Part shown: positions 1 to 15,147 of the stretch, in pieces
How the letters are laid out: each line of letters begins with the position of its first letter
How positions within the stretch are numbered: the first letter of the stretch is position 1
Assembly (NCBI GenBank): GCA_043812975.1
Contig: JBDRLP010000012.1
Span: forward strand, 1 to 26,556
Source of the DNA: Candidatus Iainarchaeum sp.
GTDB taxonomy: Archaea > Iainarchaeota > Iainarchaeia > Iainarchaeales > Iainarchaeaceae
DNA: 26,556 bases
Direction of reading: 5' to 3'
The notes under the pieces: generated by a model
What the model was told of the DNA's origin: nothing
The model's input: the letters and a program-made list of their open reading frames with translations, nothing else
Databases searched by the model: none
Program-made: the position numbers and the translations under genes

Positions 1-994
1 AGCACAAGTGGTGTCCACTAATATTGGGCCTAAAGCATCTGTAGCCGGTCTAATAAGTCCTTGGTGAAATCATTGAGCTCAACTTAATGAATGGCTAAGG
101 ATACTGTTAAGACTCGAGAGCAGAAGACGTAAAGGGAATTCCAAGAGTAGGAGTGAAATCTAGTGATCCTTGGAGGACCTCCAGTAGCGAAGGCGCTTTA
201 CGAGTATGTTTCTGACGGTGAGAGATGAAAGCTGGGGGAGCGACCCGGATTAGATACCCGGTTAGTCCCAGCCGTAAACGATGCGGACTAGGTGTCCTAG
301 CACCCACGTGGTGTGGGGGTGCCGAAGCGAAGGTTTTAAGTCCGCCGCCTGGGAAGTATACTCGCAAGGGTGAAACTTAATGGAATTGGCGGGGGCGCAC
401 TACAAGGGGTGGATGCTGCGGTTTAATTGGACACAACGCCAGAAAACTCACTAGGGGCGACAGTAGAATGATGGACAGTCTGAAGGGCTTTCCTGACACG
501 CTGAGAGGTGTTGTATGGTCATCGTCAGCTCGTACTATGAAGCGTCCTGTCAACTCAGGTAACGGGCGAGACCCATGTCTCTAGTTGCTACTTTCCGATT
601 TCGGAGGGGCACTCTAGGGAGACTGCAGTGGCAACACTGAGGAAGGAATGGTCAACGGTAGATCTGTATGGCCCGAATCTCCTAGGCTACACGCGGCATA
701 CAATGGACAAGACAATGAGTTTCGAGCCCGAAAGGGTAAGGTAATCCCCAAAACTTGTCCGTAGTTCGGATTGAGGGTTGTAACTCACCCTCATGAAGCT
801 GGAATCCCCAGTAATCGCGTGTCACTATCACGCGGTGAATTAGTCCCTGCGCCTTGCACACACCGCCCATCAAGCCAGCTGAGTGAGGCTTGGATGAGGC
901 CGATCTCTCAGAGGTCGTTCGATTCTAAGTTTCGCGAGGGGGGCTAAGTTGTAACAAGGTGTCCGTAGGGGAACCTGCGGACGGATCACCTCCT
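1..994 (+). rRNA. rrs: 16S rRNA, archaeal, 5'-truncated by the window edge
   Basis: Conserved blocks GGATTAGATACCC, AAACTTAATGGAATTGGCGGGGG, GCACACACCGCCC and GTAACAAGG; ends in GGATCACCTCCT (anti-SD) at 983-994. Confidence 0.99.
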
Positions 995-1024
995 TTAAAT
1001 TAGATTCACAAATGTGAATCACAA

Positions 1025-1126
1025 CCTTTTTCTTTCTTTTAAAGAAAGAAACCTTGTACCCTAAAGGGTACGAGGCCTCGCAAAATTTTTAAATTTTGCA
1101 AGGAAGCTTGGCCAAAAAGAAAGAAC
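1025..1126 (+). repeat. Triplex-type repeat (Y tract / R tract / 8-nt linker / mirror R tract) carrying two inserted hairpin cassettes at 1052-1075 and 1076-1103
   Basis: CCTTTTTCTTTCTTTT-AAAGAAAGAAA[52-nt insert]AAGCTTGGCCAAAAAGAAAGAAC. Removing the insert restores a 33-nt exact match to 6127-6159. Confidence 0.85.
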
Positions 1127-1197
1127 TTCGGTTTTTTCTTGAGGTCAAAAATAAATTGAAGGGGTTTCTATTACAGGCCTTTGATGATAACTCAACC

Positions 1198-1247
1198 TTT
1201 TCTTTCTCTTAGGAAGAGAAAGAAAACGTTGGCGAAAAGAAAGAGAA
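1198..1247 (+). repeat. Triplex-type repeat, perfect 13-nt version
   Basis: TTTTCTTTCTCTT (1198-1210), loop AGG, exact reverse complement AAGAGAAAGAAAA (1214-1226), linker CGTTGGCG, exact mirror AAAAGAAAGAGAA (1235-1247). Confidence 0.9.
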
Positions 1248-1362
1248 CTTTTCGTAACCAACACAAATTACACATTCCAAGTTTTTTTGGAATGGTTCAT
1301 TGGAAATTTTCCTTAAGTGCAATACGCTCAGCGTGAAGGAGTTAAGTTGCTTTTGGAATCAA

Positions 1363-1436
1363 GGGCTCTTAGCTCAGTCTGGTAGAGCGCCTCGTTTGCA
1401 CCGAGGAGGCCGCGAGTTCGAATCTCGCAGAGTCCA
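1363..1436 (+). tRNA. tRNA-Ala(UGC) in the 16S-23S spacer
   Basis: Cloverleaf with acceptor GGGCTCT/AGAGTCC including the G3:U70 identity pair, anticodon stem CCTCG/CGAGG, anticodon TGC at 1397-1399, T loop TTCGAAT. CCA not encoded. Confidence 0.98.
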
Positions 1437-1440
1437 TATC

Positions 1441-1486
1441 CCTTTTCTTTTTTTGAAAAAAAGAAAAGCGATGCCAAAAGAAAAAA
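1441..1486 (+). repeat. Triplex-type repeat directly after tRNA-Ala
   Basis: TTTTCTTTTTTT-G-AAAAAAAGAAAA hairpin, linker GCGATGCC (8 nt), mirror AAAAGAAAAAA. Confidence 0.8.
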
Positions 1487-1645
1487 CAAAAAATAAAATT
1501 AAAAAAATTAAATTAAAAATTGCAAAAGGAAAATTTCAAAATTACACTTACAAATAAATTTTTTATTGTAGGAGCCAACGCAAGTTATTTTGGGTTGGTT
1601 GAAAGAGTAATTCTCCCATGTTATAGCAGGGAGTCTTTATGATGA

Positions 1646-1670: not shown

Positions 1671-1682
<12 letters not shown>
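1646..1682 (+). other. 5' arm of the 23S pre-rRNA processing stem with a bulge-helix-bulge motif (pairs with 4651-4687)
   Basis: TGTCATGCATTGGT/ACCAATGCATGACA (14 bp), 4-bp AGGC/GCTT helix flanked by 3-nt bulges TAT and TGA, then TCGG/TCGA and TTATAGAGTTCT/AGAACTCTATAA. Confidence 0.9.
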
Positions 1683-4650
<2,968 letters not shown>

Positions 4651-4662
<12 letters not shown>

Positions 4663-4692: not shown

Positions 4693-4766
4693 TTTTTCTT
4701 TTCATTGCACGAAAAGAAAAACCTGCACTAAAAAGAAAAGTGCAGAAAGCTGTACCAAAAAGAAAG
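4693..4766 (+). repeat. Triplex-type repeat after the 23S processing stem; probably also the oligo-T terminator region of the rRNA operon
   Basis: TTTTTCTTTTC (4693-4703), reverse complement GAAAAGAAAAA (4711-4721), linker CCTGCACT, mirror AAAAAGAAAAG (4730-4740). A second partial unit AAA-GCTGTACC-AAAAAGAAAG follows. Confidence 0.85.
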
Positions 4767-4837
4767 AAAATTAAAAAACAAAAAACTTTTTTTTGGAGAA
4801 TTTATTTTTTGATAGACGTAAGTCTGGATTTTATTAA

Positions 4838-5794: not shown

Positions 5795-6108
5795 GAGTAG
5801 CAGGTGATTGGCTATCGGTTTCGAGCATAGCTCGGTGAACTGAGGAAAGTCCGCCCACCCAAAACTTTTCCAGAAAAGTTTTATCAAAAACGTAAATCTT
5901 TAATGGAGAAGTAAAAACACATGCTCCGAGAGGAGGCCTACGGGAACAGAAACGAACCCTCGTTTACGCGAGGGATGAAACGGCTCGTAGCAGGGTGCAA
6001 GTCCTTTGGACGCTAAGTCAAATGCCAATGCGACCGGTTTCGAAAGAAACAAAAACCGTTATTTAGTGGTTTTGGTCAGAACAGAAGGCGGCTTATGGCC
6101 TGCTGCTC
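5795..6108 (+). ncRNA. rnpB: RNase P RNA, minimal archaeal type, with an AT-rich insertion
   Basis: P1 GAGTAGCAGG/CCTGCTGCTC; universal CR-I GAGGAAAGTCC and CR-V AACAGAAGGCGGCTTA; P5 CACCC/GGGTG; ACAGAAACG and TGAAACGGC S-domain motifs. Confidence 0.93.
5861..5890 (+). repeat. Short triplex-type repeat inside rnpB
   Basis: AAAACTTTTC-CA-GAAAAGTTTT inverted repeat followed by ATCAAAAA, which reads AAAA-GTTTTATC-AAAA with an 8-nt linker. Confidence 0.6.
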
Positions 6109-6109
6109 T

Positions 6110-6195
6110 CCCTTTTCTTTTCTTGTAAGAAAGAAAAAGCTTGGCCAAAAAGAAAGAACAAGAAAAGAACAAAAGCTGTGCCAAAAAGAAAGAAC
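6110..6195 (+). repeat. Triplex-type repeat plus partial second unit immediately 3' of rnpB
   Basis: CCTTTTCTTTTCTT-GT-AAGAAAGAAAAA-GCTTGGCC-AAAAAGAAAGAA, then AAAA-GCTGTGCC-AAAAAGAAAGAAC. Confidence 0.85.
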
Positions 6196-11514: not shown

Positions 11515-13197
11515 TTACGGGTATGAAAGGTTTATTTTCAAAATATTTTGTATTTTTTTAAGTTGTTTAATTACTTTTTGCAGATTTTGCACGTTTTTTC
11601 CCCTTATAAAATATTCTGAATAACAAGTAGTTCCATCTTCATTCATTCTTGAGATTGCAGTTTCTATATCCAAACCATTTTTTGCTAAAATTGTCATTTG
11701 ATCCATTAGCAATTTCGGTCTGTCAACAGCTTCTACTCTTATTCTTGCAATTTCTCCTTTTTTCTCACTGTATTTTCGTTTCTTTTTGAGTTGTTGCATT
11801 ATAAGATTTTTTGATTTATCCGATTTAACAAAACTTAACCAGCTGGAATTAAGATGACTAGTTGTAGAGTAAAATATTTTTACTCGATCCCCGGTATTAA
11901 GTTGTGTCCACAAAGGAACTAATTTTCCGTTTATTTTTGCTGCAGATGATTTATATGAATTTTTTTCATTTGTAAAGTATGAAAAATCAAGAGCGGTTGA
12001 TTCTGAGGGTAGTATAATTACTTCTCCGCGGGTTGTAAATACAAGCATTGTATTATTATGAAAAACTAAATCCATTGTTTCAGCCAGTTGTTTCTTGTTT
12101 TTAATATCCGGGGTTTTTAGCTTCGGCAATGATTCTGCAAAGTTATCAAATTCTTTTATTTTATTATTCTTTAAATAACTCACAATTCCGTTTTCACCAA
12201 TATCCTCAAGTTCTTTTGTTATTATATAAATTTTAAGGGGTTTTTTCAGTGGACCAATTACTTGGGTGTGTACTGCTTTGTATATTCCGTATTCTGGGAT
12301 TGCAATAAAATCTTTAATTTTATAAGGGATAGGTTTGAAGCTTGAGTGTATTTTTCCCATTGCGGAATAACAATCATACGTGTTTTTTACAAATATTTTA
12401 AGTATTGCATAATCATTTAATTCATTTAATTGTTTGTTCTGACCAACCATTTTTGAGTGGTGTGAGTATATAGATTTTGTTTCGTGTGAAAATTCCCATT
12501 TTTCTTTCGGGAACTTTTTCTTTAAAATTTCTGCAGCTTTATGGACTACTGTTAGTCTATTTTTCCTTTCTTTAAATATAAGTTTTTTCAGTTTTTTGTA
12601 TTTTTTTGGTTCTAAAACACTGAATGCGAGTTCTTCTAACTCGTATTTTACTTTATGCATTCCTAATTTATGGATAATCGGAACGTAAATGCTTAGAACA
12701 TCACTTGCTATTCTTCTTTGTTTTTCTTTTGGTAAGTATTTAATTGTTCTCATGTTGTGAAGCTTGTCATATATTTTTATTACTAAAATTCTGAGATCTT
12801 TGGATGCTGCAATTATTGTTTTTATTATTGTTGCTGTTGAATATTCCTGTTTTGATTTAAATGATAAAATATCAAGTTTTGTTACTCCTTCTATTAGAGC
12901 AGCTACTTTTTTTCCAAAAATAGATACAATTTCTTTTCTGTTTGATTTGGTGTCCTCAATAACATCATGTAAAAGAGCTGCACTCACAATTACTTCATCC
13001 AGGCCTTCTTCTGCAAGTGTTTTTGCCACTTCGTACGGGTGTGAAAAATAAGGTTTTCCTGATGCTCTGAACTGGTTTTCGTGGGAATTTTTTGAAAAGT
13101 AGAATGCTTCTTCCACCATGGATAGGTCTGCTTTAGGGTGAAATTTTCTTATTATTTTTTTTAAATTATTAAGCTCTTTTTTTACGTTTTCGCCCAT
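11515..13197 (-). CDS. Long RelA/SpoT homolog (HD hydrolase, degenerate synthetase, TGS, ACT)
   Basis: RASGKPYFSHP, AALLHDVIEDT, DKLHNMRT, LGMHKVKYELEEL, TGS (VFTTRGEVIILP...TALDFSY...AKINGKLVPL) and ACT (VDRPKLL). The synthetase EVQIRT motif reads KIYIIT. Confidence 0.92.
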   Translation of the reverse strand: MGENVKKELNNLKKIIRKFHPKADLSMVEEAFYFSKNSHENQFRASGKPYFSHPYEVAKTLAEEGLDEVIVSAALLHDVIEDTKSNRKEIVSIFGKKVAALIEGVTKLDILSFKSKQEYSTATIIKTIIAASKDLRILVIKIYDKLHNMRTIKYLPKEKQRRIASDVLSIYVPIIHKLGMHKVKYELEELAFSVLEPKKYKKLKKLIFKERKNRLTVVHKAAEILKKKFPKEKWEFSHETKSIYSHHSKMVGQNKQLNELNDYAILKIFVKNTYDCYSAMGKIHSSFKPIPYKIKDFIAIPEYGIYKAVHTQVIGPLKKPLKIYIITKELEDIGENGIVSYLKNNKIKEFDNFAESLPKLKTPDIKNKKQLAETMDLVFHNNTMLVFTTRGEVIILPSESTALDFSYFTNEKNSYKSSAAKINGKLVPLWTQLNTGDRVKIFYSTTSHLNSSWLSFVKSDKSKNLIMQQLKKKRKYSEKKGEIARIRVEAVDRPKLLMDQMTILAKNGLDIETAISRMNEDGTTCYSEYFIRGKNVQNLQKVIKQLKKIQNILKINLSYP

Positions 13198-14987: not shown

Positions 14988-15147
14988 CGGACCCGGCGAG
15001 ATTCGAACTCGCGACCCTCTGCTAGCTTCCCTTTTCGCTAACCTTTTCGGAAACCGGGCAGAACAAGTTCTGCACGACCTCGCAGAATCCTTGATTCTGC
15101 AAGGAGGTTAGAAGGCAGATGCTCTATCCAGACTGAGCTACGGATCC
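14988..15147 (-). tRNA. tRNA-Arg(UCU) with an 85-nt intron at position 37/38
   Basis: Reverse strand: GGATCCG TA GCTC AGTCTGGATA GAGC A TCTGC CTTCTA [intron] A GCAGA GGGTC GCGAG TTCGAAT CTCGC CGGGTCC G. BHB formed by a CTTC/GAAG helix with TAA and CTA bulges. Confidence 0.95.
15024..15108 (-). other. tRNA intron built from a triplex-type repeat plus two hairpin cassettes (15054-15077, 15078-15104)
   Basis: Removing 15054-15104 leaves the perfect inverted repeat CTAACCTTTT-CGG-AAAAGGTTAG. The transcript strand reads AAAA-GGTTAGCG-AAAAG. Confidence 0.8.

Follow-up and report, generated by a model that had tools for sequence, protein, structure and literature searches.

Two small hairpins lie side by side in the spacer downstream of the 16S rRNA gene of a Candidatus Iainarchaeum genome, where they interrupt a longer repeat. 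This arrangement raises the question of whether they are chance palindromes, a functional portion of the precursor RNA or inserted DNA, and, if inserted, which unit was inserted, where it lands and what could move it. We followed this question through a 26,556-nt stretch of contig JBDRLP010000012.1 (the window; Table 1), the genome holding it (G000) and its relatives (G001, G002 and so on), with contigs denoted C and extracted loci L. On balance, we consider it somewhat probable that the two hairpins (H1 and H2) form a discrete, non-coding and non-autonomous REPIN-like mobile cassette of Iainarchaeia-type DPANN archaea.

Host repeat and cassette in the rRNA spacer

The repeat that hosts the cassette starts about 30 bases past the 3′ end of the 16S rRNA gene and contains a pyrimidine tract (S1) and the tract complementary to it (S2), followed by a linker and another purine tract (S3). 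The left part of the copy interrupted by the hairpins comprises a closing strand CAA, a mismatched C, S1 (CTTTTTCTTTCTTT), a loop and the first 11 nt of S2 (AAAGAAAGAAA), and S3 in its right part is a mirror copy of S2. Mirroring, as opposed to direct copying, was seen in all nine host-repeat copies with a third tract, in each of which the mirror match exceeded the direct match (e.g. 13 versus 7), and the opposite strand of the repeat could form a classic pyrimidine-motif intramolecular triplex. Host repeats in the window adjoin the 16S rRNA, tRNA-Ala, 23S rRNA and RNase P RNA genes (3′ side), and also fill tRNA introns. Elsewhere in G000, the repeat occurs at C1:29182, C11:13575, C25:51321, C26:6861, C27:98632, C27:105979 and C65:11887.

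Table 1. Features of the window that are relevant to the cassette and its host repeat.
Feature	Position	Strand	Remarks
16S rRNA gene	1-994		Window begins within the gene
Host repeat, left part	1022-1051	+	S1 pairs with S2; the predicted hairpin directly abuts H1
H1, first hairpin	1052-1075	+	CCTTGTACCCTAAAGGGTACGAGG; CCTTG-TACCC-TAAA-GGGTA-CGAGG, T.G at position 4
H2, second hairpin	1076-1103	+	CCTCGCAAAATTTTTAAATTTTGCAAGG; CCTCG-CAAAATTT..AAATTTTG-CAAGG, CxA at position 4
Host repeat, right part	1104-1126	+	Last 3 nt of S2 (AAG), linker CTTGGCC, S3 AAAAAGAAAGAAC
UUCG loop and U-rich strand pairing with S3	1127-1146	+	Predicted RNA fold only
Empty host repeat upstream of tRNA-Ala	1195-1250	+	S3 mirrors S2 exactly over 13 nt
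tRNA-Ala	1363-1436		
Empty host repeat directly 3′ of tRNA-Ala	1441-1487	+	
23S rRNA	1672-4661		
Empty host repeat 3′ of 23S rRNA	4693-4769	+	Two S3-like tracts
RNase P RNA	5796-6107		
Empty host-repeat paralogue directly 3′ of RNase P RNA	6110-6159	+	Second S3 copy at 6181-6195
tRNA-Arg(UCU), by reading, with 87-nt intron	14988-15147	-	Rfam tRNA 51.6 bits; the anticodon loop carries the 87-nt insertion
Cassette in the tRNA-Arg intron	15054-15104	-	Covariance model 56.1 bits on -, 53.2 bits on +

H1 and H2 had been noticed in the window as adjacent hairpins of opposite orientation, and their sequences and coordinates were confirmed. Each consists of three Watson-Crick pairs, a non-Watson-Crick position 4 and then a perfect stem. 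Because the T.G of H1 reads CxA on the other strand, H2 is the unit type of H1 in inverted form, giving the skeleton CCTTG-x-CGAGG/CCTCG-y-CAAGG. This skeleton is its own reverse complement, so that a hairpin of the wobble type precedes one of the CxA type on each DNA strand. Unit sizes range from 21 to 30 nt, with stems of 9-13 bp.

The cassette interrupts S2 three bases before its end. Joining position 1051 to 1104 regenerates a 33-nt exact match (AAGAAAGAAAAAGCTTGGCCAAAAAGAAAGAAC) to positions 6127-6159, as the original prediction had stated, whereas the longest match to that repeat across the boundary is 4 nt if the cassette is left in place. There is no target duplication at this site, since the A-run of the filled copy (3+2) equals the five A residues of the empty copy at 6127-6159, and none was found at the tRNA-Arg intron site described below. 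With regard to the terminal inverted repeats and target-site duplication that characterise a MITE, we detected only the 5-nt inverted feet. Excision of the cassette through a bulge-helix-bulge motif, with a 4-bp helix between two 3-nt bulges, was considered and rejected, as in the predicted folds the cassette adjoins its neighbours without unpaired bases. No Rfam family overlaps positions 995-1362 at the gathering threshold, and the best sub-threshold match reached 22.9 bits, compared with the 45 bits needed.

The unit differs from the one first proposed. A two-tier architecture, with the cassette inside a host repeat, was upheld by our analysis, but the stepwise addition of single ~25-nt hairpins was not, because all four family hairpins recovered by a strict end-motif search of the 1.24-Mb genome are halves of doublets. 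No singlet family hairpin was found with this strict end pattern; the fifth match, in a region that looks coding, is a perfect palindrome unrelated to the family. The unit is therefore one ~50-nt inverted doublet without a spacer, and not two separately added cassettes.

Given that the surrounding DNA is AT-rich and repetitive, and that single hairpins of 24-28 nt are not rare (199 hairpins with a position-4 mismatch in the genome versus 181 in one shuffle), H1 and H2 might be regarded as chance palindromes in a low-complexity spacer. However, hairpins that combine CC..GG feet with a single position-4 mismatch number 14 in the genome and 1 in one Markov-shuffled genome, and the doublet is matched in dozens of genomes with E values down to 3e-13 and with compensatory changes in its stems. 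These observations already refute a chance origin, whose probability we consider negligible.

Distribution and conserved shape of the doublet

When the spacer was compared with relatives using BLAST, two pieces recurred, one of ~100 nt (host repeat plus hairpins) and one of ~52 nt that represents the hairpin pair alone. A covariance model was then built from seven G000 copies, omitting the C1 copy because a MAFFT alignment of the eight copies of this genome had placed its H1 against the H2 of the others. The model identified eight doublets in G000 at E < 1e-7, namely the seven training copies, and one new copy (C1:13184), and one further weak candidate at E = 0.07; the doublet at 1052-1103 scores 64.5 bits. 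Matches at E ≤ 0.01 were obtained in 23 of 41 genomes including G000, among them 19 of 22 same-family relatives and three genomes from outside the family. Sampling the phylum evenly, we obtained matches at E ≤ 1e-5 in 35 of 151 genomes; the matches span at least nine families and are missing from others (e.g. 0/15 and 0/12). The distribution is thus patchy, and copy number varies between genomes: the model, which often scored both strands of one copy, returned 34 matches in G011 and 27 in G038 (a single contig, 99% complete). The eight G000 copies all differ in their stems, giving no sign of recent bursts in this genome.

Beyond the phylum sample, a strict sub-pattern matched 19 stretches among 185,579 species genomes, all in records titled as archaea (Iainarchaeum, Diapherotrites, 'archaeon' and one 'Thaumarchaeota'), and had no matches in viral contigs. 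This pattern replaced a loose gapped one, for which the matches listed were mostly chance matches in bacteria and the copy at L028 was the sole real one. No description of these elements was found in the literature searched, a search whose coverage excludes most subscription journals.

To evaluate what is conserved, we collected 114 copies with flanks (8 from G000 and 106 from relatives, each on its best-scoring model strand and including a few identical duplicates), bearing in mind that a model trained on seven G000 copies favours look-alikes. Positions 1-3 and 5-8 are Watson-Crick in 103-112 of the 114 copies per hairpin (90-98%), whereas position 4 is Watson-Crick in only 1/114 copies of the first hairpin (T.G 96, GxA 9, G.T 4) and 6/114 copies of the second (CxA 87). 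The terminal CC../..GG ends are paired in 104-111 copies, and an unpaired terminal GTAG or CGTC tag is absent from all 114. In an alignment of 96 distinct rows, some of which represent both strands of one copy, 16 of the 17 modelled pairs change on both sides. Compensatory cells number 181, compared with 35.2 ± 4.5 in shuffles (0/500 reaching this count) and with 12-20 after sliding the partners. The expectation that stems covary while ends and mismatch are kept was thereby borne out, and what is conserved are only the 5-nt feet, the pairing and the helix irregularity at position 4.

Where C-G has changed to A-T at position 2, both sides of the pair within one hairpin have changed together and independently of the other hairpin, which indicates that the two-hairpin fold is the conserved one. 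An alternative fold with an outer CCTTG/CAAGG helix was rejected, since these changes are not coordinated across the two hairpins. Two perfect hairpins exchanging 3-nt strands were also considered as the source of the mismatches, and rejected because this exchange, worked out on paper, gives the wrong feet.

Conserved pairing next to stable-RNA genes could also mean that the doublet functions as a structured RNA module within the spacers and introns of pre-rRNA and pre-tRNA, for instance in binding a protein or in folding, with a fold kept by selection and copies moved by recombination. Such a module would be in keeping with the position of cassettes in transcribed spacers, leaders and an intron, with the compensatory pair changes, and with a pair that reads G.U in RNA at position 4 of the first hairpin. 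The RNA of positions 1023-1160 is predicted to fold into four consecutive hairpins of high stability (z = -6.68; 0/200 shuffles equally stable). The opposite strand of the same region, folded as DNA, is predicted to form a four-way junction. A 187-nt contig from an RNA library matches positions 982-1165 without a difference, from the 3′ end of the 16S rRNA through the cassette, and fits read-through from the 16S rRNA into the spacer; at a depth of 3.25, it could also be explained by DNA carry-over. Another contig (depth 3.9), from a run with a presumed DNA label, matches positions 1006-1244 without a difference. No joint that skips positions 1052-1103 was seen in public-run contigs from four runs, contigs being unable to show rare alleles, and no run in the public-run search contained half of the query words.

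Several observations stand against a functional RNA. On either strand, one hairpin carries the wobble and the other a CxA pair (87/114), which is not RNA-friendly, and the best model strand is mixed among host-repeat copies, with 28 in host sense and 18 opposite. Cassettes are also located between protein genes, their distribution is patchy, close relatives lack the cassette at the same site or the whole intron, and no Rfam family matches. We regard a selected RNA module as improbable; the strand symmetry of the doublet and its CxA pair argue instead that its shape matters at the level of DNA rather than RNA.

Insertion sites and their turnover in relatives

The pyrimidine/purine (Y/R) host repeat accommodates 58 of the 114 copies, of which 46 occupy the S2-end site, counting both strand views, and 12 the linker or other positions. 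Another 20 copies occupy exactly ATCT^TCG in a GC-rich hairpin repeat, and the remaining 36 have flanks of other types, several of which recur. The single defined host site that had been predicted is consequently a preferred but not a unique one, as the loop, linker, S2 start and S1 arm are used in addition to the S2 end (at least five positions), together with a second, unrelated host and at least five other recurrent flank types. The GC-rich host was found empty (YATCT^TCG..CTCGATR, 3-12 nt between) at 66 sites in five genomes (G004, G007, G011, G014 and G015), compared with no matches to the reversed control pattern. No target sequence common to all contexts was seen across the 114 copies. 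Two filled GC-rich-host copies of G007 lie between co-directional ORFs. The possibility that cassettes are always sense to a stable RNA was discarded, as the C17 copy precedes its tRNA in antisense orientation and many copies are flanked by protein genes on both sides.

Pairing outward from the insertion point reveals a further pattern. Among 52 copies that interrupt one arm of a long host hairpin, exactly three pairs followed by a non-pair were counted in 20, including four of the seven G000 copies analysed. Based on this outward pairing, three of the four junction arms in a folded filled repeat share three base pairs followed by an irregularity. L028 and L160 each have a host repeat with two cassettes, of which one occupies the S1/S2 loop and the other S2; multiple occupancy of one host is therefore possible.

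The second cassette of the window lies within a gene that ARAGORN missed (it called two of the three tRNA genes in the window). Judging from its loop CUUCUAA, this gene would be a tRNA-Arg(UCU) with a canonical 37/38 intron, which by our count extends over approximately 15022-15108. The 87-nt intron can, as inferred from its sequence, form a bulge-helix-bulge motif, within which the cassette is no more than cargo. Insertion is at CCT^TTTCC in a hairpin of the intron. In tRNA sense, the cassette reads CCUUG..CGAGG (U.G) followed by UCGUG..CCCGG (UxC), and on the + strand CCGGG..CACGA (GxA) followed by CCTCG..CAAGG (CxA). The first note on this DNA had placed a third cassette at 15078-15104 and a 24-nt partner at 15054-15077 correctly, but had not recognised the surrounding tRNA intron and had taken the latter for a decayed copy; it instead has ends of a second type (CCGGG..CACGA, GxA at position 4), which recurs at C17 and C27 of G000 and in relatives.

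The Rfam tRNA model recovers only 31 tRNA genes in G000, eight of which are 94-167 nt long owing to large insertions in the anticodon loop. More tRNAs of this genome are probably hidden by introns, and cassettes and host repeats can make tRNA genes invisible to standard finders.

Comparison with relatives revealed filled, empty and exchanged sites. The host repeat after the 16S rRNA gene is filled in G012 (L003) and empty at the same place in G022 (L004), and is also empty in G008 and G007. Within the tRNA-Arg intron, G000 reads CCT^cassette^TTTCCGAAAAGGTTAGCG.., while the same type of intron in G012 is empty (CCTTTTTCAAAAAGG..). The corresponding intron of G002 is a full host repeat with a cassette in the linker, those of G013, G026, G007 and G004 contain host repeats without a cassette, and the same-genus genomes G001, G003 and G005 have no intron. 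Orthologues without the intron read CTTCTAAGCAG. Altogether, tRNA-Arg(UCU) lacks an intron in 7 of the 15 genomes that yielded the gene (loci L192-L208), and the introns of the others range from ~35 nt to more than 150 nt and are made of one or more host repeats. The intron has thus been gained, lost and rebuilt within one family. At L193 (G001), a ~115-nt GC-rich, hairpin-rich insertion separates the tRNA-Arg 3′ end from conserved downstream sequence; an insertion of this type is missing at the same place in the window.

A replacement was observed between G000:C27 (125.6 kb) and the orthologous G003:C50, whose flanks are near-identical over hundreds of bases by eye. Both sites are filled, and the 52-nt cassette has been replaced wholesale, the one in G003:C50 resembling the rRNA-spacer cassette of the window. 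The few other differences cluster in the loop and linker of the host repeat, so that gene conversion fits the swap as well as re-insertion does. In G007, four copies have an identical cassette and ~35 nt of near-identical flank on each side; the larger GC-rich element has multiplied recently in this genome.

Taken together, the doublet as the unit, its precise boundaries and the filled, empty and swapped sites in relatives are shown by these comparisons. The three outcomes that had been named as arguments against an inserted element, namely a lack of further copies, random flanks and a lack of filled/empty polymorphism, were contradicted by eight copies in the genome, non-random flanks and both states among relatives.

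A further insertion was observed in C65 of G000 (11695-11860; L144 296-460), where ~144 nt including a filled host repeat are flanked by a 20-nt duplication, with one mismatch, of a tRNA 5′ end. The tRNA, read as tRNA-Gln(UUG) from the loop CTTTGGA, was called neither by Rfam at the gathering threshold nor by ARAGORN; its downstream copy is a complete gene with a ~100-nt intron that holds an empty host repeat.

The exchange at C27 also bears on whether the cassette has any mobility of its own. A few entries per host-repeat family, followed by multiplication of the host and gene conversion, would reduce site specificity to descent and homology. Near-identical host arms, such as the 33-nt identity described above, would give conversion a substrate, and the clustered differences at C27, the resemblance of the incoming G003:C50 cassette to that of the rRNA spacer, the sharing of the S2-end site by 46 of 58 host-repeat copies and the lack of a co-occurring transposase candidate all fit such a history. 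The insertion in C65 implies that host and cassette can move together. However, the at least five positions in the Y/R host and at least five other recurrent flank types would need many independent, exact-ended primary insertions, two host repeats contain two cassettes each, and cassette stems differ far more between copies than host arms do. We consider it possible but rather unlikely that the cassette lacks mobility altogether. Part of its spread could certainly be due to gene conversion between host repeats, which can also explain part of the apparent site specificity.

Candidate enzymes, possible mechanism and related elements

An enzymatic addition by a Y1/RAYT-like, reverse-transcriptase or Cas1-like protein, as initially suggested, was not supported by our searches: neither these nor an integron integrase or IS110 co-occur with the cassette. 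Y1 transposase (PF01797) had no match in G000 (94% complete), G011 or the single-contig G038, whereas G023 encodes five copies and has no cassette. Reverse transcriptase (PF00078) was found neither in G000 nor in any of the 22 same-family relatives, Cas1 was present in one of these 22, and IS110 was not found in G000. The integron integrase model (TIGR02249, NCBIfam) was not matched above its cut-off in any of the 41 genomes. Integrase matches of ~110 bits were dismissed as Xer-type recombinases, which occur in 37/41 genomes and all 14 control genomes. G000, which has no Y1, encodes a single TnpB-like (Cas12f1-like_TNB) ORF of 408 aa (C9:1277-1474).

We propose that gain, loss and exchange of the mobile cassette take place at exact boundaries and leave no target duplication, and that it would land in hairpin-forming DNA, be it the Y/R 'triplex' repeat near stable-RNA genes (near its base or in its loop or linker), a fixed point of the GC-rich hairpin repeat or the tRNA intron. 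The folded single-stranded DNA of the cassette may be recognised by a protein acting in trans, probably through its shape (three base pairs, then a distortion) rather than its stem sequence. After primary insertion, the cassette would spread among host-repeat copies, partly via gene conversion, and may persist because it resides in sequence that is discarded (spacers, leaders and introns) or tolerated. Counting against a mobile cassette are that our searches found no mobilising enzyme, that its contexts share no target sequence and that all eight G000 copies differ in their stems.

More specifically, but as a decidedly improbable proposition, the cassette may be shape-specified, strand-symmetric mobile DNA that has no transposase of its own and uses a ubiquitous host enzyme acting on branched or hairpin DNA. 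The folded, filled host repeat is predicted to form a perfect four-way junction, in which H1, H2 and the closing arm each have exactly three Watson-Crick pairs followed by a non-Watson-Crick pair. According to a review, the archaeal resolvase Hjc nicks 3 nt 3′ of the branch point (PMC10956419), and the three base pairs of these arms would link them to Hjc by equalling its nicking distance. Here, the irregularity would serve as a mark for the site of strand transfer or, alternatively, keep the extruded junction from being resolved.

The cassette represents a doublet with the logic of a REPIN in ultra-small DPANN archaea that lack a Y1 enzyme, nested at exact points in two repeat families. Its mobility, if real, would indicate that archaea carry out a DNA transaction specific for hairpins or junctions. 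The cassette also suggests that selfish DNA of streamlined genomes finds its refuges in the spacers, leaders and introns of stable-RNA genes, and it provides a natural filled/empty/swapped marker for strain-level population work.

Four known systems invite comparison. Elements derived from IS200/IS605 are strand-specific, whereas the cassette is strand-symmetric. Insertions of the IS200/IS605 type occur without target duplication and have subterminal imperfect hairpins that are read in single-stranded DNA (PMC6006769, PMC3116915). Palindrome-associated elements derived from this family therefore resemble the cassette in their imperfect hairpins and absence of target duplication. They differ from it in that the cassette does not co-occur with Y1 and is not preceded by a fixed 4-5-nt target.

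Integron attC sites are recombination sites set by a folded single strand, with conserved feet, variable stems and helix irregularities. The cassette is similar in all of these features, but it comprises 50 nt and no gene, no GTTRRRY-type core was seen at its ends, and an integron integrase above the cut-off is lacking in all 41 genomes.

Descriptions of REP/REPIN-type elements come mostly from bacteria and link the elements to a domesticated Y1 transposase. Like REPINs, the cassette is non-coding and extragenic and consists of short imperfect palindromes, 20-40 nt long in REP elements and 21-30 nt here, that form an inverted doublet as the replicative unit, with conserved ends and a variable remainder, and new copies insert in or beside existing repeats. 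In Pseudomonas fluorescens SBW25, REPINs are mobilised by RAYT, and a 'clover' fold was proposed as the form recognised by the enzyme (PMC3116915). The cassette differs from REPINs in being archaeal and of low copy number (eight in G000), in having fixed insertion points in two other repeat families and in its lack of a GTAG-type unpaired tag, and no Y1/RAYT was found in G000 or the copy-rich complete relative. It is also shorter, with ~50 nt and no spacer, compared with the 71-110 bp spacing of REPINs (PMC3116915).

REP families tagged with GTAG or CGTC, including Rickettsia palindromic elements, have stems of 5-13 bp and short loops, and their sub-families display alternative complementary stem residues and G.T pairs (PMC3733652). 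The same study describes head-to-head dimers as common, including heterodimers with different stems, and one family in which the fifth stem position is unpaired; a dedicated transposase is lacking for CGTC elements, and the tagged families are reported there in bacterial phyla (PMC3733652). The cassette shares the short stems and loops, complementary stem variants, G.T pairs and head-to-head dimers. Tagged REPs are, however, defined by an unpaired terminal tetranucleotide (PMC3733652), whereas the CCT../..AGG ends of the cassette are paired and its hallmark is the non-Watson-Crick pair at position 4. Because neither the RAYT gene nor the unpaired GTAG/CGTC tag was found, we do not file the cassette as a member of the REP/REPIN group; its exact boundaries without duplication, its presence, absence and replacement among relatives, its patchy spread, its variable copy number and its conserved shape and feet suggest a mobile element of that kind.
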